A stretch of DNA of 23,780 nucleotides from a virus (lineage: Duplodnaviria > Heunggongvirae > Uroviricota > Caudoviricetes): the IMG/VR virus record IMGVR_UViG_3300015207_000030, positions 1-23,780 of that record, one strand, 5' to 3'. The position numbers and the translations under genes are program-made. The notes beneath the pieces were generated by a model that saw only the letters and a list, made by a program, of their open reading frames with translations, ran no database searches and was not told where the DNA came from. Shown in pieces: positions 3,043-10,461 of this stretch. Every line of letters begins with the position of its first letter. The stretch's first letter is position 1.

Positions 3043-3414
3043 GTGCAGCAAAAACAGCATATTGAAGATACCGAGCAGATACATCTTTTTGATTGGGCGG
3101 CGATGCAGTCGGGGAAATATCCCGAATTGTCGCTGCTTTTTCATATCCCGAACGGCGGCAAGCGTGACGCACGTGAGGCGGCGCGGTTCAAAAGAATGGG
3201 CGTAAAGGCGGGCGTTCCCGATCTGTTTCTGCCCGTTCCGCGCGGGAAGTTTCACGGATTGTTTGTCGAACTGAAAGCGCCGAAAGGAAAACTTTCCGAT
3301 TATCAGAAGCAGTGGCTTCAGGAGCTTGCGGCGAGCGGCTACGCGGCTTGCGTTTGTTTCGGTTTCGACGAGGCTCGGCAGGATATTATGAAGTATCTTG
3401 AGGGGAAATTCTGA
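3043..3414 (+). CDS. VRR-NUC domain nuclease (PD-(D/E)xK superfamily)
   Basis: 123 aa from a GTG start with RBS GAGGTG; motifs HIPNGG.R, GVPDL and FVELK...GKLS..Q..W match the VRR-NUC signature as I recall it. Confidence 0.75.
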   Translation: MQQKQHIEDTEQIHLFDWAAMQSGKYPELSLLFHIPNGGKRDAREAARFKRMGVKAGVPDLFLPVPRGKFHGLFVELKAPKGKLSDYQKQWLQELAASGYAACVCFGFDEARQDIMKYLEGKF

Positions 3415-3524: not shown

Positions 3525-5441
3525 TTGCGAAACGAGACCAAGCGGCAGCGGGAGGCAAAGCTGAACGCGTGTATCACGAAAGTCTTGAACGCGATGAAGC
3601 CTCCCGAAATAAGAACAGTGGCGGAGTGGGCGGATAAGAACCGCCGTTTAACGTCGGAATCATCGGCGGAGGTAGGCAAATGGCGCACCTCGCGCACGCC
3701 GTATATGCTGGATATTCTGAACTCGTTCACCGACCCGAAGGTCGAGCACATTGTTGTGGTTGCCTCCTCGCAGGTCGGGAAATCCGAGGTTGAAAACAAT
3801 ATCGTCGGATACATTATAGATCAGGACCCCGGTCCGATATTATTTGTACAGCCGACGGTAGACGACGCGAAGAAATATTCCGAAATGCGTATCGCTCCGA
3901 TGATACGTGAAACAAAGTGCCTTAAGAAAAAGGTCGCGGACCCGAAAACGCGCGATGGCGCAAACACCAAGCGTCAGAAAGCGTTTCCGGGAGGAGTGCT
4001 CGTGCTAGCGGGTTCAAATGTTCCACATGATCTGTGTTCAATGCCTATTCGGTATCTGATCGGCGACGAGCGTGACCGTTGGGCAAAATCGGCGGGCTCG
4101 GAGGGCGATCCATGGGAACTGGCGGTCGCGCGTACAAGAACGTTTTACAACCGCAAGCTGATAGAGGTCTCCACGCCGACCGTTAAAGGAGCGTCCGCTA
4201 TTGCCAAGGCGTACAGTCTCGGTACTATGGAGCGTTGGAAAACACAATGTCAGCATTGCGGCGGGTATTCCGAGGTGCAGTTTGAAGATATCCGTTTTGA
4301 ATATGATTCCGTTGACAAAGATGAAGAGAAGATATTCGATATCAAGTCGATTTTCTATGTTTGTCCGATTTGCGGCGGCGTTTCTTTGGAGAACGAGGTG
4401 AAAAAACAGCCGTCGAAATGGGAGGCGGAAGTGCCCGAGGCAAAGGAACTGCATAAGACCCGTTCGTTCTGGCTGACGGCATGGGTCTCCCCGTGGGCAA
4501 CATGGGAGTCTATCATACTGCAATTCCTGCAAGCGGGTACGGATTCCGCAAAGCTGCAGGTAGTGTACAACACTCAATTCGGCAAGCTGTGGGAAAATCG
4601 CGGCGATATGGACAGCGAGGAGGATATGCTCGCGCGTCGCGAGGAATACGGTGCGGAGCTGCCGGACGGCGTTCTGGTGCTGACGTGCGGCGTTGATACA
4701 CAGGACGACCGCTTGGAATATGAGGTGGTGGGCTATGGACATTTTAAAGAAAAATGGGGCATAAAAAAGGGCGTCATTATGGGCAGACCCGATACAAACG
4801 AAGTGTGGGAGCGGCTTGATGATGTTATAGCTCACAAATACACATTTTCAAACGGGCTGTCGCTCGGCGTATCGTTGACGTTTGTCGATGAGGGCGGTCA
4901 TTTTACACAGGAGGTACGCAGGCGCTGCCGCGAGCGGCAAAGCAAAAACGTATTTGCGATCAAGGGCGCATCGGGCAGTCGGGATATTCCGTATACGTCC
5001 GTTCCGAAACGGCAGAAGATCGTAATAAACGGTCAGACCGTCGGTTCTGTATGGGTGTATGAGATCGGCGTTGACGCGGGCAAGCAAAAGATCTTTGACG
5101 ATCTGCGTGTGCAGACGCCCGGGGCGAATTACTGCCATTTCCCGCGCCGCGACGATTACGGTAAGGCGTTCTTCAAGTCGTATATGTCGGAACGCCTGAC
5201 ATATAACGAAAAACTCAAAAACCCGTGGCGTTGGGAAAAAATTCCCGGGCATGAGCGTAACGAGGCACTGGACTGCCGAAATTACGCAAACGCGGCATTT
5301 GCGGCACTCGATCCCGATCTTGACGCTGTCGAACATCGATTAAAAGCGATGTTAATCGGAACAACGGCAGGCGCGCCGAAAAAGAAATCCCCGAAAACAG
5401 CGAGAAGAAAGCCGACGGACACGGCATACAGCGATTGGTGA
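3525..5441 (+). CDS. terL: Terminase large subunit, lambda GpA family
   Basis: 638 aa; TTG start after RBS GGAGGTG; Walker A-like SSQVGKSE within a PYMLDILNS...LFVQPTVDDA...PMIRE block matching the lambda gpA N-terminal ATPase region; CQHCGG and CPICGG zinc-finger-like pairs. Confidence 0.85.
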   Translation: MRNETKRQREAKLNACITKVLNAMKPPEIRTVAEWADKNRRLTSESSAEVGKWRTSRTPYMLDILNSFTDPKVEHIVVVASSQVGKSEVENNIVGYIIDQDPGPILFVQPTVDDAKKYSEMRIAPMIRETKCLKKKVADPKTRDGANTKRQKAFPGGVLVLAGSNVPHDLCSMPIRYLIGDERDRWAKSAGSEGDPWELAVARTRTFYNRKLIEVSTPTVKGASAIAKAYSLGTMERWKTQCQHCGGYSEVQFEDIRFEYDSVDKDEEKIFDIKSIFYVCPICGGVSLENEVKKQPSKWEAEVPEAKELHKTRSFWLTAWVSPWATWESIILQFLQAGTDSAKLQVVYNTQFGKLWENRGDMDSEEDMLARREEYGAELPDGVLVLTCGVDTQDDRLEYEVVGYGHFKEKWGIKKGVIMGRPDTNEVWERLDDVIAHKYTFSNGLSLGVSLTFVDEGGHFTQEVRRRCRERQSKNVFAIKGASGSRDIPYTSVPKRQKIVINGQTVGSVWVYEIGVDAGKQKIFDDLRVQTPGANYCHFPRRDDYGKAFFKSYMSERLTYNEKLKNPWRWEKIPGHERNEALDCRNYANAAFAALDPDLDAVEHRLKAMLIGTTAGAPKKKSPKTARRKPTDTAYSDW

Positions 5442-5451
5442 GGTAACCGAA

Positions 5452-5709
5452 ATGATAAGTAAAAAAACCGCGCGGAAGATGTACAACTACTACACCGAGC
5501 GCATAGATCAGCTGATACAAGCGCAGACCGCATTGACGAGCGGCGGCGTTAAATCGTACACTATCGGCGACAGACAGGTCACGAAATTTGACTTGACGCG
5601 GCTGTCGCAGGAGCTTGATGATGCTGTGGAGAAACAGGCGTATTACGATGCGATACTTAAAGGCAAGCCTACGCGCGCGATCGTGGGGATCGTTCCGACG
5701 GATAAATAA
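5452..5709 (+). CDS. Head-tail joining / head completion protein, lambda gpW-like
   Basis: 85 aa directly after terL; LTSGG...YTIGDRQVT...L..L pattern resembles lambda W; position matches lambda gene order. Confidence 0.5.
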   Translation: MISKKTARKMYNYYTERIDQLIQAQTALTSGGVKSYTIGDRQVTKFDLTRLSQELDDAVEKQAYYDAILKGKPTRAIVGIVPTDK

Positions 5710-5743: not shown

Positions 5744-6151
5744 TTAATCTTGAATGTGACATTGCTTTTTCAGACCGTCCAGAAGCACGGCTGAGAAATT
5801 CACGCCCTGTTCTTCGGCGATTGCGTTGACCCAACCGGGAATGGAGAGGGTTTTCTTTACGAAGTGCTTGTGCATTTTCTCGCGGAACGGTTTCATATAG
5901 ACTTCGATAAGCATTGGAAGCTCGTTTTTTTCAAGCTGAATATCCTTAAGCTCCGAGGGCTCAGGAATTTCCTCCTTGTCCTCCTCCATTCCGTAAAGGT
6001 GCAGCAGAAGAGCGTCTTTAGCGCTTTCGATTGCTTTTTCGGTGGTTTCCCCCGCGCTTACACAGCCGGGGAGGTCGGGGAAATATATGCCGATTGTTCC
6101 TTTATCGCCGTATTCCAACACGGCGATAAATCTGTATTTGTCGAGGTACAT
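5744..6151 (-). CDS. hicB: HicB-family antitoxin-like protein with C-terminal DNA-binding (RHH-like) tail; no HicA partner found
   Basis: 135 aa; N-terminal YRFIAVLEYGDKGTIGIYFPDLPGCVSAGETTEKAIESAKDALLLHL matches the HicB/UPF0150 signature (PDLPGC core); C-terminal KKTLSIPGWVNAIAEEQGVNFSAVLLDGLKK resembles an RHH/CopG-type segment; RBS AGGAG 6 nt upstream. Confidence 0.75.
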   Translation of the reverse strand: MYLDKYRFIAVLEYGDKGTIGIYFPDLPGCVSAGETTEKAIESAKDALLLHLYGMEEDKEEIPEPSELKDIQLEKNELPMLIEVYMKPFREKMHKHFVKKTLSIPGWVNAIAEEQGVNFSAVLLDGLKKQCHIQD

Positions 6152-6262
6152 AAAGTTCTCCTTTCGATAGTCGGCATTACCGAGGGTTTAACAATTATAT
6201 TGTAATACGCAATTTGTTACGTGTCAAGTGGCTTTTCAAAAATTTTTAAAGAAGGTGAAAAA

Positions 6263-7777
6263 ATGAGCGGCTATTCAGATGCGGGCGCGAGTTATGACAA
6301 ACGCGCCTTAAAAGCCTTTATAGCGCGTTCTCTGTCGGCGATAGAGGATATCGACTATAACAACTTTACGCTGCGGCAGCGTGCGCGTATGCTGTATATG
6401 GCGTCGCCGATAGCGGCGGCAGCGATCAACACCAACCGCACAAAGATAGTCGGCAAAGGTCTGCGGCTGAAATGCAACATTGATTATGAGACGCTGGGGA
6501 TTTCCCCCGAGGCAGCCAAGAAATGGTGCAGACGCACCGAGGCGGCGTTCCGCTTTTGGTGCGAGGATCGCCGCAACTGCGACGCGCTCGGAATAAACAA
6601 TTTTTTCGAGCTTCAAAGTCTGGCGTGCAAATCATGGCTGATGAGCGGAGACGTTTTCGTGTTGCTGAAGCGCGAAAAGGCAACTCCGCTCAATCCGTAC
6701 ACACTGCGGCTGCATCTTGTCGAAGCCGATCGCGTATGCACTCCCGCGACCGCGGACGGCGGTTTGTGGAACGTTACCGAGGGCGAGTACAAGGGTCACA
6801 AGGTGCATGACGGCGTTGAGGTCGACGACAACGGTAAAGCGGTCGCGTACCACGTCTGCAACATCTATCCGGGGCAGATGAGCGCAAAAACGGAGAATTG
6901 GGTGCGTATAAAGGCAGTCGGCGAAAAAACGGGGCTGCCGAATATTCTGCACATAATGGACGCGGAGCGTCCCGATCAGTATCGGGGCGTTTCTTATTTG
7001 GCGTCGGTTATCGAGATGATCCTGCAGCTGCGCAGATACGTTGAGAGCGAACTGTTGGCGGCGCTTGTGCAGACATACCTTACTGCGTGGATAAAAGCCG
7101 CAGGCGACACGTCAGAAATGCCTATCATAGGGGATCAGGACGAGGAGGACGAAGAGGAACGATATGACAAAGACCCGCAGATGGCTCCCGGGAACGTTAT
7201 ACATTTAAAGCCCGGCGAGGATGTTATTTTCGGCAATCCGAATATCCCGACAGCGGGCTTTGAGACGTTCTCCAAGACGATCATAAAGCAGATAGGCGCT
7301 GGGCTTGAAATACCGTATGATGTGCTTGTCAAAGAGTTCAATTCCTCGTATTCCGCGTCAAAGGGCGCGCTCGAGGAGGCTTGGGAGGCTGTCAAAATGC
7401 GCCGCGCGTGGTTCGTGTCGGATTTTTGCCAGCCGATTTACGAGGTCTGGCTTTCGGAGGCGGTCGCGCTCGGCAAGATAAACGCTCCCGGTTTTTTCGA
7501 TGATCCGCTTATACGAGCGGCTTGGTGCGGTTCACGCTGGGACGGCCCCGCGCAAACTCACCTTGATCCGCTTAAAGAGGCAAAAGCAAACGCTATACTC
7601 GTTCAGAACGGCTGGAAAACCAACGAGCAGACCACACGCGAGTATTACGGCGAGAATTGGGAGGAAAATATGCAGCAGCTCGAACAGGAGAACGGGCTGA
7701 AAAACGCCGTTTGTCCGCCTGTAACAAATATGGATTTCAGCGATGAGGAGGAAGACGAAGATGCCAAAAACGATTGA
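6263..7777 (+). CDS. Portal protein, lambda gpB family
   Basis: Listed ORF starts at GTG 6221; I prefer ATG 6263 behind RBS GAAGGTGA. The segment FETFSKTIIKQIGAGLEIPYDVLVKEFNSSYSASKGALEEAWEAVKMRRAWFVSDFCQPIYEVWLSEAV parallels the lambda gpB C-terminal region as I recall it; acidic C-terminal tail. Confidence 0.8.
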   Translation: MSGYSDAGASYDKRALKAFIARSLSAIEDIDYNNFTLRQRARMLYMASPIAAAAINTNRTKIVGKGLRLKCNIDYETLGISPEAAKKWCRRTEAAFRFWCEDRRNCDALGINNFFELQSLACKSWLMSGDVFVLLKREKATPLNPYTLRLHLVEADRVCTPATADGGLWNVTEGEYKGHKVHDGVEVDDNGKAVAYHVCNIYPGQMSAKTENWVRIKAVGEKTGLPNILHIMDAERPDQYRGVSYLASVIEMILQLRRYVESELLAALVQTYLTAWIKAAGDTSEMPIIGDQDEEDEEERYDKDPQMAPGNVIHLKPGEDVIFGNPNIPTAGFETFSKTIIKQIGAGLEIPYDVLVKEFNSSYSASKGALEEAWEAVKMRRAWFVSDFCQPIYEVWLSEAVALGKINAPGFFDDPLIRAAWCGSRWDGPAQTHLDPLKEAKANAILVQNGWKTNEQTTREYYGENWEENMQQLEQENGLKNAVCPPVTNMDFSDEEEDEDAKND

Positions 7778-8999
7778 ACGCGCTTGTTATGCGCTGGCAG
7801 CCGACAGCAAATCGGAAACGGCAGAGCTTACGCTTTACGGAAACGTTGTCAAAAGGCGTCCGCTCGAGATCGATTGGGATAACGACAGGATCGCCAAGTC
7901 GACGGATAATTATATCGTTGAACAGGAATTTCTCGACGATTTAAAGGCTGTCGGGAAATGCAGGAAATTGAATATCCGCGTGAACTCTCTCGGCGGCGAT
8001 GTGCATGTCGCGCTTACAATTTACAGCCGTTTGCGCGAGCTCACGGAAAACGGCACGGAGCTTACCTGTTCCGTGGACGGAGTGGCAATGTCGGCGGGTT
8101 CGATGATAATGTGCGCCGCTGATAAGGTCACGGCAAGCGAAAGCTCGCTGATAATGGTTCACCGCAGTATGACGATGCCGCCGGATTATCTTAACGCGGA
8201 CGAGCTTCGCAAAGAGGCGGAGAGAATGGACGAGTACGACAAGGCGATAGCGTCCTGTTACAAACGCAAAACGGGAAAGTCCGAGGCGGAGCTGCTCCGC
8301 ATGATGAGTAAGGAGACATATATGACGGGCGCGGAGGCAAAGGACGCGGGCTTTGTGGACGAGCTTACAAGCTCTGAAAAATTAATAGCGATCGCGGCTT
8401 GTGCGGATATGAGATCACTTATGGTGGGCGGCAGAACGTTCGATTTAATGGGCGCTCCCATGCCCTTGAATTTACCGACGGTAACACAGCCCGAGCCGCA
8501 AGGCGGCGCGGACGTTACAGATATATCACAAACTGAAGGAGGTAACGGAATTATGGCAAATAACTTTGATGAACTGCTTAAAGAGAACCCCGCTCTCGCG
8601 GCGGCTATCGAAAAGGAGTTAAAGGCAAAAGCCGAGGCGGACGTTTCGGCTAAGGCGAACGAGACGGCAGCTAAAGCGGTCGAAGCGGAGCGGAAGAGAA
8701 TAGCCGAGATCGACGAGATAGCGGCGCTGTATTCTCCCGAACTGGTGGAGGCGGCGAAGTACGGCGACAAGGCGTGTACAGCGCAGGAACTCAGCTACAG
8801 AGCGGCTGTCGAGAACGCCAAGAGGGGCAGGAAGTTCGGCGACGATCTTCTGGCTGACGCAAAGGATTCGGGAGTGGGCGGCGTTCATGCTGCCGTTCCG
8901 CCCGCCGAGGGCAATGGCGGCGAAAAGTCGGAGGACGAGCTTATGGCAGAGGCAAGAGCAGCCGTTAAGGCGGCGCTCGGAGAGGAGGTAACGGCATGA
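7761..8999 (+). CDS. Prohead protease (ClpP/S49-like) fused to or nested with a scaffold domain, lambda gpC-like
   Basis: NSLGGDV and GVAMSAGSMIM match ClpP-family serine protease motifs; C-terminal third is Ala/Glu/Lys-rich coiled coil typical of scaffolds. Start could be ATG 7743 or ATG 7761 (RBS GAGGAGG). Confidence 0.75.
   Translation: MPKTIERACYALAADSKSETAELTLYGNVVKRRPLEIDWDNDRIAKSTDNYIVEQEFLDDLKAVGKCRKLNIRVNSLGGDVHVALTIYSRLRELTENGTELTCSVDGVAMSAGSMIMCAADKVTASESSLIMVHRSMTMPPDYLNADELRKEAERMDEYDKAIASCYKRKTGKSEAELLRMMSKETYMTGAEAKDAGFVDELTSSEKLIAIAACADMRSLMVGGRTFDLMGAPMPLNLPTVTQPEPQGGADVTDISQTEGGNGIMANNFDELLKENPALAAAIEKELKAKAEADVSAKANETAAKAVEAERKRIAEIDEIAALYSPELVEAAKYGDKACTAQELSYRAAVENAKRGRKFGDDLLADAKDSGVGGVHAAVPPAEGNGGEKSEDELMAEARAAVKAALGEEVTA
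8553..8999 (+). CDS. Possible nested in-frame scaffold protein (lambda Nu3-like arrangement)
   Basis: Internal in-frame ATG at 8553 preceded by strong RBS GAAGGAGG (8535..8542); downstream sequence is the coiled-coil Ala/Glu-rich part of the protease ORF. Confidence 0.35.
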   Translation: MANNFDELLKENPALAAAIEKELKAKAEADVSAKANETAAKAVEAERKRIAEIDEIAALYSPELVEAAKYGDKACTAQELSYRAAVENAKRGRKFGDDLLADAKDSGVGGVHAAVPPAEGNGGEKSEDELMAEARAAVKAALGEEVTA

Positions 9000-9364
9000 C
9001 GGAGCTGTCAAAGAAAACAGCCGCTATGGAGCCCGACGATCTGGTAGTCGGCACACAGCCGCCTTTGCGGACGGTCGGCGCGACCGTTAAAGGCGGCGCG
9101 GGCGAGCTTAAACGCGGCACGATAATGGCAAAGGGAGCGGACGGACTGCTGGATATTCTCGGAAAAGATACCGAAGCGGAGGCTTACGGCATTCTGACCG
9201 ACGATATCAACGCTGCCGACGGCGATCAGCCCGCAGTGATCTACATCAGCGGCAAATTCAACGCCAACAAAATGATCGCCGCGGACGGCTATACGATCAC
9301 GGAAAAAGACAAGGATACGCTACGCAAGTACGGCATCGAGCTTACCGCCGCGCTGTCCTATTGA
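8996..9364 (+). CDS. Head decoration protein, lambda gpD-like
   Basis: 122 aa between protease/scaffold and major capsid; AYGILTDDINAADGDQPAVIYISGKFNANKMI resembles the lambda D core (GILA...T.Y.SG.F). Confidence 0.55.
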   Translation: MTELSKKTAAMEPDDLVVGTQPPLRTVGATVKGGAGELKRGTIMAKGADGLLDILGKDTEAEAYGILTDDINAADGDQPAVIYISGKFNANKMIAADGYTITEKDKDTLRKYGIELTAALSY

Positions 9365-9384: not shown

Positions 9385-10461
9385 ATGCCTAATACGCTTG
9401 ATATTTTCAGCTCCTATACAATGCTGGCGACTCTGGAGCTTGTTAAGCCCGAGACGCTGTTCTTTTCGTCGCGCTATTTCCCTACGGGAGCGGGGGATAT
9501 TTTCAATTCCGACAAGGTGCTTGTCGAATACACAAAGGGCGACCGCAAAATGGCTCCGTTCGTTTCGGAGAGGATCGGCGCTGTTCCCGTTGAGAGACGG
9601 GGCTACGAGATACGCGAGTTTGCGCCCGCGCACATCGGCGTTTCGCGCACGCTCACTCTGGACGATCTTAAAAAGCGCGGGTTCGGCGAGGCGCTGTACT
9701 CCAATACCAAGCCCGCGGAGCGCGCTCTGCGTATGCAGCTTGAGGATATGACCGATCTTAACAAACGCATTTCACGCCGCGAGGAGTGGATGTCGGTGCA
9801 GACCATGATCAACAACGCCTGCCCCGTACAGGAGATGTTTGACGCGAAAACGGTGGGCGAGGAGAAACTCGTACAGTTCTTCGGCAGCGAAAGCTCCGAG
9901 CATATTTACACCGTCGCCAATATGTGGAATTCCAAAGACGGAAACATAACCGGAGACGTTTATGTAATGTGCGAGCAGCTTGCAGGCAGAGGACTGAACG
10001 CCGTCGATCTGGTTATCGGCTCGGACGTTGCGGACGTGTTCTACGACGATCCTGTCATCGCGAGAATGATAGACAAAAACTCGGGCATCAATTTCGGCAT
10101 GATAAACGAGCAGATAGTTTATCCCGGAGTATCGCAGATAGGTCCTCTTAATTTCAGAGGGCACTGGCTGACCATTTATGTGGTGTCGACGTCTTACGAG
10201 GACGAAAACGGCGTTACAAGACCGTATTTCCCCAAAAATTCGGCTATGGTAACATATCCGAATTGCGGCCACAAAATGTACGGGCGGATCACGCAGATGC
10301 CTTACGGTTCTATCGATTACAAGACGATCGCGGCAAAACGTGTTCCGAAGCTTATAGTGGACAATGCCAACGATACGAGAGCGCTGTCGCTCAAAACGCG
10401 TCCGCTTACTGCACCGAGGACATACTGCCCGTACATCTACGCGGCAAACGTAGTGGGCTGA
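9385..10461 (+). CDS. Major capsid protein, lambda gpE family
   Basis: ATG 9385 behind RBS AAAGGAGGG; the N-terminal 90 aa share the pattern Y...P..F.S.YFP...MA.FVS...PV...G..EF.P with lambda E as I recall it; size and position fit. Confidence 0.75.
   Translation: MPNTLDIFSSYTMLATLELVKPETLFFSSRYFPTGAGDIFNSDKVLVEYTKGDRKMAPFVSERIGAVPVERRGYEIREFAPAHIGVSRTLTLDDLKKRGFGEALYSNTKPAERALRMQLEDMTDLNKRISRREEWMSVQTMINNACPVQEMFDAKTVGEEKLVQFFGSESSEHIYTVANMWNSKDGNITGDVYVMCEQLAGRGLNAVDLVIGSDVADVFYDDPVIARMIDKNSGINFGMINEQIVYPGVSQIGPLNFRGHWLTIYVVSTSYEDENGVTRPYFPKNSAMVTYPNCGHKMYGRITQMPYGSIDYKTIAAKRVPKLIVDNANDTRALSLKTRPLTAPRTYCPYIYAANVVG

Follow-up and report, generated by a model that had tools for sequence, protein, structure and literature searches.

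The protease gene C of bacteriophage lambda contains an in-frame nested ORF, nu3, which ends at the same stop codon, and the two products are a protease-scaffold fusion and a free scaffold (PMC8508860, in the passage citing Shaw and Murialdo 1980). In phage P2, the single polypeptide gpO starts with a protease and ends with a scaffolding domain. It is an accepted precedent for a protease-scaffold fusion, and the passages of PMC8508860 and of the HFTV1 preprint that cite it report no internal start. In Mu (I/Z) and in Mu-like Pseudomonas phages (gene 27 of PaMx73) the start codon of the scaffold lies in frame within the protease gene and is preceded, 8-9 nt upstream, by a Shine-Dalgarno (SD) sequence (PMC4378225). 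Herpesviruses (UL26/UL26.5), including Ostreid herpesvirus, produce a protease-scaffold fusion together with an N-terminally truncated, more abundant scaffold read in the same frame (PMC11565193). Annotation had given the gp17 gene of the archaeal tailed virus HFTV1 as one gpO-like protease/scaffold, but by Ribo-seq the gene has an in-frame start in its interior, and ribosomes are denser on its 3′ part (bioRxiv 10.64898/2026.09.13.751334). In gp5 of Pseudomonas phage MD8 a ClpP protease, a scaffold and the capsid protein are joined in a triple fusion (PMC8508860).

Here we describe a prophage locus in a 23,780-nt stretch of tailed phage DNA (the window; IMG/VR record IMGVR_UViG_3300015207_000030), in which the frame extending from 7761 to 8999 appears to encode a protease-scaffold fusion and, ending at the same stop codon, a free scaffold. 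From the comparative evidence we assign this reading a probability of about 0.85. The design is already known from lambda; here it is predicted as a conserved but unannotated feature of a large family of gut Clostridia phages.

Gene order of the head module

The genes surrounding the long ORF are arranged as a lambda-type head module: terminase, gpW-like protein, portal, protease-scaffold ORF, gpD-like decoration protein and gpE-like capsid protein (Table 1). This order, in which the ORF follows the portal gene and precedes those for the decoration and major capsid proteins, is identical to lambda A-W-B-C/nu3-D-E and is likewise kept in relatives. As in lambda, the terminase, portal, decoration and capsid proteins fall in lambda Pfam families. 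The true start of the portal gene is probably ATG 6263, which has AGAAGGTGA ahead of it. The ATG of the decoration gene overlaps the stop codon of the predicted scaffold (ATGA).

The Phage_cap_E match spans residues 19-353 of the longest capsid ORF (366 aa). Since this capsid protein lacks an N-terminal delta domain, a separate scaffold is needed. In the interval between the portal and capsid genes we found no scaffold candidate other than the C-terminal domain of the long ORF.

Table 1. Features of the predicted protease-scaffold locus and its neighbours (positions in the window)
Feature	Position	Strand	Evidence
Portal gene, lambda family	6221..7777	+	Pfam Phage_portal_2, E=2e-95
SD of the long product, GAGGAGG	7746..7752	+	8-9 nt ahead of ATG 7761; dG -11.5
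Long ORF, predicted protease-linker-scaffold fusion, 412 aa	7761..8999	+	Open frame; >1100 homologues of ~400 aa
ClpP-type head maturation protease domain, residues 1-241	7761..8483	+	HMM matches; Foldseek; AlphaFold2 pLDDT ~90
Disordered linker, residues 245-263	8493..8549	+	pLDDT <50; length and sequence variable in alignments
Internal SD, GAAGGAGGT	8535..8543	+	dG -13.8; GGAGG 7 or 10 nt ahead of the ATG in 59/62 representatives
Nested in-frame ORF, predicted free scaffolding protein, 148 aa	8553..8999	+	Conserved ATG; helical model; separate-gene homologue P0137
gpD-like head decoration gene	8996..9364	+	Pfam HDPD, 35 bits; phrog_49
gpE-like major capsid protein gene	9385..10461	+	Pfam Phage_cap_E, E=3e-39; AAAGGAGGG before ATG 9385

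The long ORF begins with a ClpP-type protease

The long ORF terminates with the stop codon at 8997-8999. Its SD sits within the 3′ end of the portal gene. An alternative start codon, ATG 7743, lies six codons before 7761; homologue P0001, with 97% identity, has a length of 412 aa, consistent with a start at 7761.

As judged from sequence and structure comparison, the ORF begins with a ClpP-related prohead protease (MEROPS S14-like). The score of the domain against Pfam CLP_protease (PF00574) was 82.5 bits (cut-off 20.2) and against NCBIfam NF045542 133.8 bits (cut-off 120), and Foldseek matched it to ClpP with a target TM of 0.70-0.77. No variation was seen at Ser111 (in GVAMSAGS) or His134 (in IMVH) across an alignment of 41 homologues; we take both residues to belong to the catalytic motifs of ClpP. 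The ORF shares with MD8 gp5 and NCBIfam NF045540, which stands for ClpP-protease/scaffold/capsid triple fusions, a ClpP-like protease at the N terminus and a helical, scaffold-like stretch after it; NF045540 covers residues 54-344 of the ORF with a score of 146, far under its cut-off of 475. Unlike in MD8 gp5, the capsid protein of the present phage is encoded by a separate gpE-type gene, with the decoration gene in between.

The protease differs in family from lambda gpC, which is an S49 peptidase. With Pfam Peptidase_S49 it scored 20.8 bits, below the cut-off of 24.9, and BLASTP against gpC gave a local alignment with 30% identity over 130 residues (E=6e-5). The systems of Mu and PaMx73 are different in protease family, capsid family and head module, and the herpesvirus protease has an unrelated fold (assemblin).

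The C-terminal domain is a predicted scaffold

[quoted passage not shown] In the AlphaFold2 model the C-terminal domain (residues 269-406) is nearly all helical, with helices at 277-323 and 341-369, and Met265 is found at the end of the disordered linker, just ahead of the helical domain. The domain had no match in Pfam, NCBIfam or the PDB. Comparison with lambda Nu3 detected no similarity (BLASTP E=0.1; hhalign probability 1.7%). RAST-type annotations in relatives name the domain 'scaffolding domain Nu3'. From its position, composition and helicity, and by analogy with the described systems, we infer that it serves as capsid scaffold.

The preliminary description had called the arrangement lambda C/Nu3-like. 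This is apt for the design, a protease gene with an in-frame nested co-terminal ORF giving a fusion and a free scaffold, and for the gene order, but it does not extend to homology: the protease is of the ClpP type (S14 and not S49), and between Nu3 and the scaffold domain no similarity was detected. The site of the nested start is different as well. The annotated start of nu3 (codon 239 of C) aligns with Met156 of the present protein, inside the protease fold, whereas the present internal start lies after the linker, at the domain boundary.

The predicted internal translation initiation site

ATG 8553 (8553-8555) is in frame with ATG 7761, at codon 265 ((8553-7761)/3 = 264). It is preceded by GAAGGAGG (8535-8542), located at the 3′ end of the linker, and by the spacer TAACGGAATT (8543-8552), which places it 10 nt after GGAGG. 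The ribosome binding site earlier noted 10 nt upstream of the in-frame ATG can thus be read directly in the sequence.

Copies of GGAGG abound on this coding strand, which is rich in Glu and Gly codons: the plus strand has 50, and the window contains four other in-frame internal pairs of GGAGG and a start codon. The bare motif therefore proves little, and we relied instead on the energy of pairing, on rank and on conservation. Pairing with the 3′ end of 16S rRNA was predicted at -13.8 kcal/mol, the strongest value among the 136 internal in-frame ATGs of the plus-strand ORFs in the window. It also surpassed 21 of the 22 gene starts in the window, making the internal site second best of all starts.

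An internal promoter was considered as another route to the short product. A sigma-70-like scan of the plus strand near 8553, which is weak evidence either way, gave nothing convincing (nearest hits, 9/12, at 7882 and 8082).

Conservation of the predicted internal start

The homologue set comprised 145 distinct ORFs with 40-97% identity, from which 67 representatives sharing <70% amino acid identity were selected. An SD sequence followed by ATG or GTG was found at the aligned position (within 6 codons) in 144 of the 145 homologues; in the last one it lies about 30 codons downstream. The ATG proper is kept in 138 of 146 distinct ORFs, and the remainder carry a shifted ATG or GTG with an SD. The ORFs at L004, L005, L012, L014, L015, L036, L108 and L109 were exceptions in appearance only: close to the aligned codon each carries ATG or GTG in frame, together with a strong SD. 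Among the representatives ATG occupies the aligned codon in 62 of 67, and in every one of these the SD dG is -9 or lower (median -12.5); in the remaining five, ATG or GTG with a strong SD is found in frame close by. Among control codons of the homologous ORFs only 0.05% reached -13 and 4-5% reached -9. By its median the internal SD is on a par with that of the decoration gene (-12.6) and slightly exceeds that of the start of the protease itself (-11.2). The distance between GGAGG and ATG is 7 nt in 35 sequences and 10 nt in 22.

The region of the internal ATG is also predicted to be weakly structured. The folding energy of 60-nt segments was -9.0 kcal/mol at the internal ATG, compared with -15 to -18 elsewhere in the ORFs, giving a clear trough centred on the ATG. 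Part of this trough is due to the lower G+C content of the site (0.49 vs 0.55).

These results bear on the possibility that the gene yields a single product, as P2 gpO does, and that the internal SD-like motif and the Met are incidental or mark a ribosome pause between two domains. Chance SD-like motifs do occur within genes, P2 offers a precedent, and every public record that we checked annotates these genes as a single CDS. A pause site, however, needs no start codon, yet ATG or GTG is present at 7 or 10 nt in essentially all 145 homologues. Moreover, the site lies in a conserved mRNA-structure trough typical of initiation regions, its SD equals that of a highly expressed neighbouring gene, and a related lineage expresses the scaffold domain from its own gene. 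The strong and conserved internal initiation region predicted here sets the present ORF apart from gpO, and we consider a single product unlikely.

Codon choice upstream of the internal start

In most representatives the SD is formed by codons for two glycines preceding the ATG. This Gly-Gly pair was encoded by GGA-GGN in 57 of 58 representatives; of the 192 Gly-Gly pairs elsewhere in these ORFs only 23 were encoded in this way. Among Gly codons as a whole the share of GGA is 17.5%, and invariant Gly columns have GGA in only 6-18% of the sequences. The codon before the Gly-Gly pair ends in A (GAA or AAA) in 46 of 58 representatives, and the residue that it encodes varies (E, K, N, Q, D, T, I), whereas the nucleotides AGGAGG stay. 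In a few sequences the SD is formed in another codon phase, by codons for Lys-Glu-Val or Glu-Glu-Val. The fixed codon choice points to selection on the nucleotides and not on the peptide. The p-values for codon choice (Fisher, p = 3e-36) and for the folding energy trough (Wilcoxon, p = 1e-11) ignore phylogenetic relatedness, a limitation softened by the use of representatives with <70% identity and by the synonymous drift at the invariant Gly columns.

Prohead proteases cut scaffolds. Glu-Gly-Gly-x(2-3)-Met could accordingly be a feature of the protein, a flexible hinge or the cleavage site of the protease itself, whose likeness to a ribosome binding site is coincidental. Gly-Gly would be plausible in a linker, and the motif does lie within a disordered segment. 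Such a feature would leave unexplained why GGA is fixed at this pair while other Gly-Gly pairs and invariant glycines drift, why AGGAGG persists next to a varying residue, and why some members of the family use a different codon phase and different amino acids. In addition, the split variant described below keeps GAAGGAGG in non-coding DNA. A purely protein-level role of the motif is thus extremely unlikely.

The fusion and the split-gene lineage

ORFs spanning both domains were present at all 160 loci retrieved. In the 67 representatives the frame of the junction is free of stop codons without exception, and the other two frames are stopped in 38 and 61 of them, respectively. The junction being always open indicates that the fusion itself is also under selection.

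In one related lineage (L167-L169, on 11 contigs) protease and scaffold homologue have a gene each. A ClpP protease of 292 aa, 48% identical to the protease domain of our phage and ending in TAG, is followed by a 65-nt spacer with GAAGGAGG, by a separate 130-aa homologue of the scaffold domain, and then by the decoration and capsid E genes. The protease of this lineage bears a different C-terminal tail of about 55 aa.

The split lineage, in which the protease lacks the scaffold domain and has another tail, could be taken to mean that the separate parts alone matter: the fusion would then be a by-product, read-through at the open junction would merely be tolerated, and some other route would bring the protease into the procapsid. 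Under such a scheme one would not expect the junction to be open in all of the diverse representatives in spite of a poorly conserved, indel-rich linker, with the other frames frequently stopped and ORFs with both domains at every locus. We regard this as very unlikely.

Standalone database proteins of about 140-150 aa that start at the internal Met (P0122-P0131) at first seemed to demonstrate a separate gene, but their contigs end just upstream; they represent choices of the gene caller at contig ends and were not counted as independent evidence. The contig of L164 begins with an Illumina adapter. L170, a long-read contig full of frameshifts, was disregarded.

Predicted expression and role of the two products

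Production of a free scaffold beside the fusion, as suggested in the preliminary description, is favoured by every comparative test that we ran (conservation, codon choice, spacing, structure trough, domain boundary, split lineage and gene order). A single late mRNA would yield both co-terminal proteins. Initiation at ATG 7761, which overlaps the end of the portal gene, would give the fusion of about 45 kDa, composed of the ClpP-type prohead protease, the flexible linker and the helical scaffolding domain. Ribosomes binding to the internal SD, in a weakly structured stretch, would start at ATG 8553 and make the helical domain alone, a free scaffold of 15.6 kDa. Analogy with lambda C/Nu3, Mu I/Z, herpesvirus UL26/UL26.5 and HFTV1 gp17 suggests that the free scaffold would be the abundant species and would co-assemble with the capsid protein of gpE type, that the C-terminal domain common to both products would bring a few copies of the protease into the procapsid, and that the protease would afterwards remove the scaffold. 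What the sequences show are the initiation signals, their conservation as nucleotides, the domain boundary, the open junction and a natural variant with split genes; the use of ATG 8553, a scaffolding role of the domain, the stoichiometry and the proteolysis we infer. The parallels differ in mechanism and in the kind of support: the short form of herpesviruses comes from a transcript of its own and not from an internal ribosome binding site, and HFTV1, a virus of an archaeal host with unrelated sequence, has Ribo-seq support, whereas the present case is known from sequence.

A wider reading would be that the nested start arose independently in ClpP-type (S14) fusions, at a junction other than that of lambda, that it is near-universal and unannotated in a Clostridia phage family of >1000 members, and that weaker equivalents exist in Fusobacterium, Vibrio and E. 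coli phages; for this combination we see about even odds. If it is true, then together with Mu, herpesviruses and HFTV1 a fusion plus an internally initiated scaffold would be a repeatedly evolved solution for protease:scaffold stoichiometry across Duplodnaviria, and a single family would display the fused, the nested and the split state. At the present locus the lambda-style design is predicted with a different protease family and a different junction, which bears on how protease:scaffold ratios are set in capsid assembly. The value of the finding is more practical than conceptual, and nothing known is overturned by it. The unusually clean comparative signal (codon choice in the SD, spacing, structure trough and split variant) could guide a systematic search for nested scaffolds.

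Few late proteins are as abundant as the scaffolding protein. One CDS, named 'Clp protease' or 'head maturation protease', is what gene callers and every public record checked give for these genes, and the predicted scaffold is consequently absent from the annotation of a very large group of gut Clostridia phages and prophages (Oscillospiraceae, Faecalibacterium, Roseburia). Prophages in Flintibacter muris DSM 110149 (L027) and Anaerotruncus colihominis DSM 17241 (L059) have the site as well. Cultured relatives in which the same site is the strongest internal start include the Faecalibacterium phages Taranis and Lagaffe, phage nd4, Roseburia phage Shimadzu, Clostridium phage Saumur and Fusobacterium phage Funu1.

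Probable dual coding capacity of the protease gene

The plus-strand reading frame closed by the stop codon at 8997-8999 is open from ATG 7743 or ATG 7761. The latter was taken as the start because it is preceded by GAGGAGG (7746-7752) and because a database homologue, 97% identical to the predicted protein (the query), is 412 aa long. The preliminary description had placed an in-frame ATG with an upstream Shine-Dalgarno (SD) sequence inside this gene, in front of an Ala/Glu-rich C-terminal part. The site was found exactly as described (see table), and the nested ORF of 148 codons specifies 24% Ala and 14% Glu. GGAGG as a bare motif is not rare in the window (50 copies on the plus strand). The pairing energy of the internal SD with the 16S 3′ end is −13.8 kcal/mol, the strongest for the 136 internal in-frame ATGs of the window, and only one of the 22 gene starts has a stronger SD.

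Residues 1-241 are, as judged from profile and model comparisons, a ClpP-type head maturation protease: they match Pfam CLP_protease with 82.5 bits, the NCBIfam NF045542 score is 133.8 bits (cut-off 120), and the AlphaFold2 model of the query (mean pLDDT 81.5) was aligned by Foldseek to ClpP structures with target TM values of 0.70-0.77. None of 41 homologues deviates at Ser111 or His134, which lie in the ClpP-like motifs GVAMSAGS and IMVH. Residues 245-263 are poorly conserved and predicted to be disordered (pLDDT <50), whereas residues 269-406 form long helices in the model, which places Met265 right where the linker gives way to the helical domain. Searches of Pfam, NCBIfam and PDB yielded no match for the helical domain; its sole family match was the C-terminal part of PHROG 53, 'head maturation protease'.

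Features of the head module and of the split variant
Feature	Position	Strand	Remarks
gpA-type large terminase	3525-5441		
gpW-like head-tail adaptor	5452-5709		
HicB-like antitoxin ORF	5744-6151	−	Pfam PF15919, E=2e-16; between gpW-like and portal genes
Lambda-family portal	6221/6263-7777		
Internal SD	8535-8543	+	GAAGGAGGT, read from sequence
Internal ATG	8553	+	10-nt spacer after SD; codon 265 of the long frame
gpD-type decoration protein	8996-9364		
gpE-type major capsid protein	9385-10461		
Split protease			292 aa; 48% identical to query protease domain; TAG stop
Split-variant spacer			65 nt; contains GAAGGAGG
Split scaffold homologue			130-aa gene, other frame than protease; decoration and capsid genes next

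Conservation of the internal start

Relatives of the query occur in genomes of Oscillospiraceae and other Clostridia and in gut viromes, the closest locus being a prophage (97% identical) from the MAG of an uncultured Oscillospiraceae member. The 160 loci fetched for comparison encode 146 distinct ORFs, including that of the window, from which 67 representatives sharing <70% identity were selected. At the position of Met265 in the alignment, ATG is present in 138 of the 146 ORFs and in 62 of the 67 representatives. SD energies in these 62 are all −9 kcal/mol or lower (median −12.5), a level seen at 4-5% of control codons; −12 kcal/mol is reached by only 0.16% of the controls. Each of the five remaining representatives has, within a few codons, an in-frame ATG or GTG preceded by a strong SD; in locus L036 this alternative start lies ~30 codons downstream of the aligned position. 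The SD is separated from the ATG by 7 nt (n=35) or 10 nt (n=22). Its median strength matches that of the next gene (−12.6) and somewhat exceeds that of the protease's own SD (−11.2). Predicted folding energy in 60-nt windows has a trough centred on the internal ATG (−9.0 vs −15 to −18 kcal/mol; Wilcoxon p = 1e-11), which is partly due to lower G+C. This comparative evidence is decisive for the internal site being more than a chance occurrence.

The SD encodes Gly-Gly, and the conserved element might be a motif of the protein. This reading is contradicted by codon choice: the first Gly codon is GGA in 57 of 58 representatives, as against 23 of 192 other Gly-Gly pairs in the same genes (Fisher p = 3e-36), and overall 17.5% of the Gly codons in these ORFs are GGA. 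Synonymous sites are otherwise free, since GGA is used at invariant glycines elsewhere in only 6-18% of the sequences. Also against a peptide motif, the residue preceding Gly-Gly is variable (E, K, N, Q, D, T, I) with a mostly A-ending codon, a few members have the SD in a shifted codon phase encoding Lys-Glu-Val or Glu-Glu-Val, and the SD is kept in the non-coding DNA of the split variant. Selection thus acts on the nucleotides rather than on the peptide.

In cultured relatives, namely Faecalibacterium phages Taranis and Lagaffe, phage nd4, Roseburia phage Shimadzu, Clostridium phage Saumur and Fusobacterium phage Funu1, the same site is the strongest internal start. A weaker form of it, which also opens with 'M/V-x-LEEL', occurs in relatives from Vibrio and E. 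coli. Many database proteins of 140-150 aa start with the internal Met (among P0122-P0131); these were dismissed as products of gene calling on contigs whose sequence ends just upstream.

Fusion and split forms

The possibility that the fusion is mere read-through is contradicted by the junction, whose frame is open throughout: in none of the 67 representatives does an in-frame stop interrupt the 30 codons before the internal start (stops are present in 38 and 61 of them in the other two frames), and the ORFs span both domains in all 160 loci. The fusion is therefore maintained, and both the long and the short product appear to be selected.

In one lineage (loci L167-L169, protein P0137; 11 contigs, several samples) protease and putative scaffold are separate genes. 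As this arrangement shows, the C-terminal domain is able to work on its own, as a free polypeptide. A single gpO-like product, with the internal SD unused or serving for pausing, does not explain the data, as it leaves the conserved start codon, the spacing, the structure trough and the split variant unaccounted for.

In the split locus (L167:2057-3393, also L168 and L169) the protease carries an unrelated C-terminal tail of ~55 aa, and the separate scaffold lacks the helix ('MAKNLEEL...') with which the nested form begins.

Proposed mechanism and comparison with lambda

Dual initiation on one mRNA is the best-supported reading. The 5′ start, which overlaps the end of the portal gene, would yield the protease-linker-scaffold fusion, and ATG 8553 would yield the helical domain alone, the predicted free scaffold. 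By analogy with lambda C/Nu3 (Shaw and Murialdo 1980, cited via PMC8508860; PMC3224144), Mu I/Z and PaMx73 (PMC4378225), herpesvirus UL26/UL26.5 (PMC11565193) and HFTV1 gp17 (bioRxiv 10.64898/2026.09.13.751334), free scaffold would be in excess over the fusion, the shared C-terminal domain would target the protease into the procapsid, and the protease would later degrade the scaffold. The proposal of a free scaffold beside a protease-scaffold fusion gains support at the level that comparative genomics can offer.

Its designation as 'lambda C/Nu3-like' holds for the design, but not for the proteins. The Pfam Peptidase_S49 score of the query is 20.8 bits, under the cut-off of 24.9, the only match to lambda gpC is local (E=6e-5), and the helical domain has no similarity to lambda Nu3; by these comparisons the query falls outside the lambda C and Nu3 families. 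The strategy is shared, but protease family and junction differ: codon 239 of C, where nu3 is annotated to start, aligns to Met156 within a protease-fold helix, whereas the internal start of the query is at a domain boundary. No phage record of the collection has an annotated nested CDS for this protease family; two RAST-style records give the name 'protease C / scaffolding domain Nu3' to the single CDS they list. The finding is real, and adds a large, new, unannotated membership to a well-known arrangement.

In lambda itself (NC_001416, 1819-3138) the strongest internal in-frame SD and ATG of gene C is at codon 309 (CAGGAGGGCGAATG, dG −10.8); the annotated nu3 start is weaker (dG −6.9).

Gene context

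The surrounding genes form a lambda-type head module; lambda itself has the order A-W-B-C(nu3 nested)-D-E. The tail tube, tape-measure-like, gpD-type hub and baseplate J genes 3′ of it indicate a contractile tail. The stop TGA of the protease/scaffold frame overlaps the decoration ATG as ATGA (8996-8999), which suggests translational coupling onto the decoration gene; in most homologues the downstream ATG is found at −4 to +5 nt relative to the stop. The ribosome-binding regions of the internal and decoration starts share an 11-nt string, GGAGGTAACGG (8538-8548 and 8984-8994).

The longest-ORF starts of the portal gene (GTG 6221, lacking an SD) and of the capsid gene (TTG 9361) are probably wrong; the likely starts are ATG 6263, preceded by AGAAGGTGA, and ATG 9385, preceded by AAAGGAGGG, respectively. 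The HicB-like ORF is a moron-like insertion within the head module. An AIG2/GGACT-like gamma-glutamyl cyclotransferase ORF and a VRR-NUC nuclease ORF (420-872 and 3043-3414) lie upstream of the terminase gene. Among the fetched contigs, L011 (CAVIFG010000007.1), binned as 'Escherichia coli isolate ... cleanbin', has a Clostridia-type head module (47% identity) and is probably mis-binned, and L164 opens with Illumina adapter sequence (1-50).
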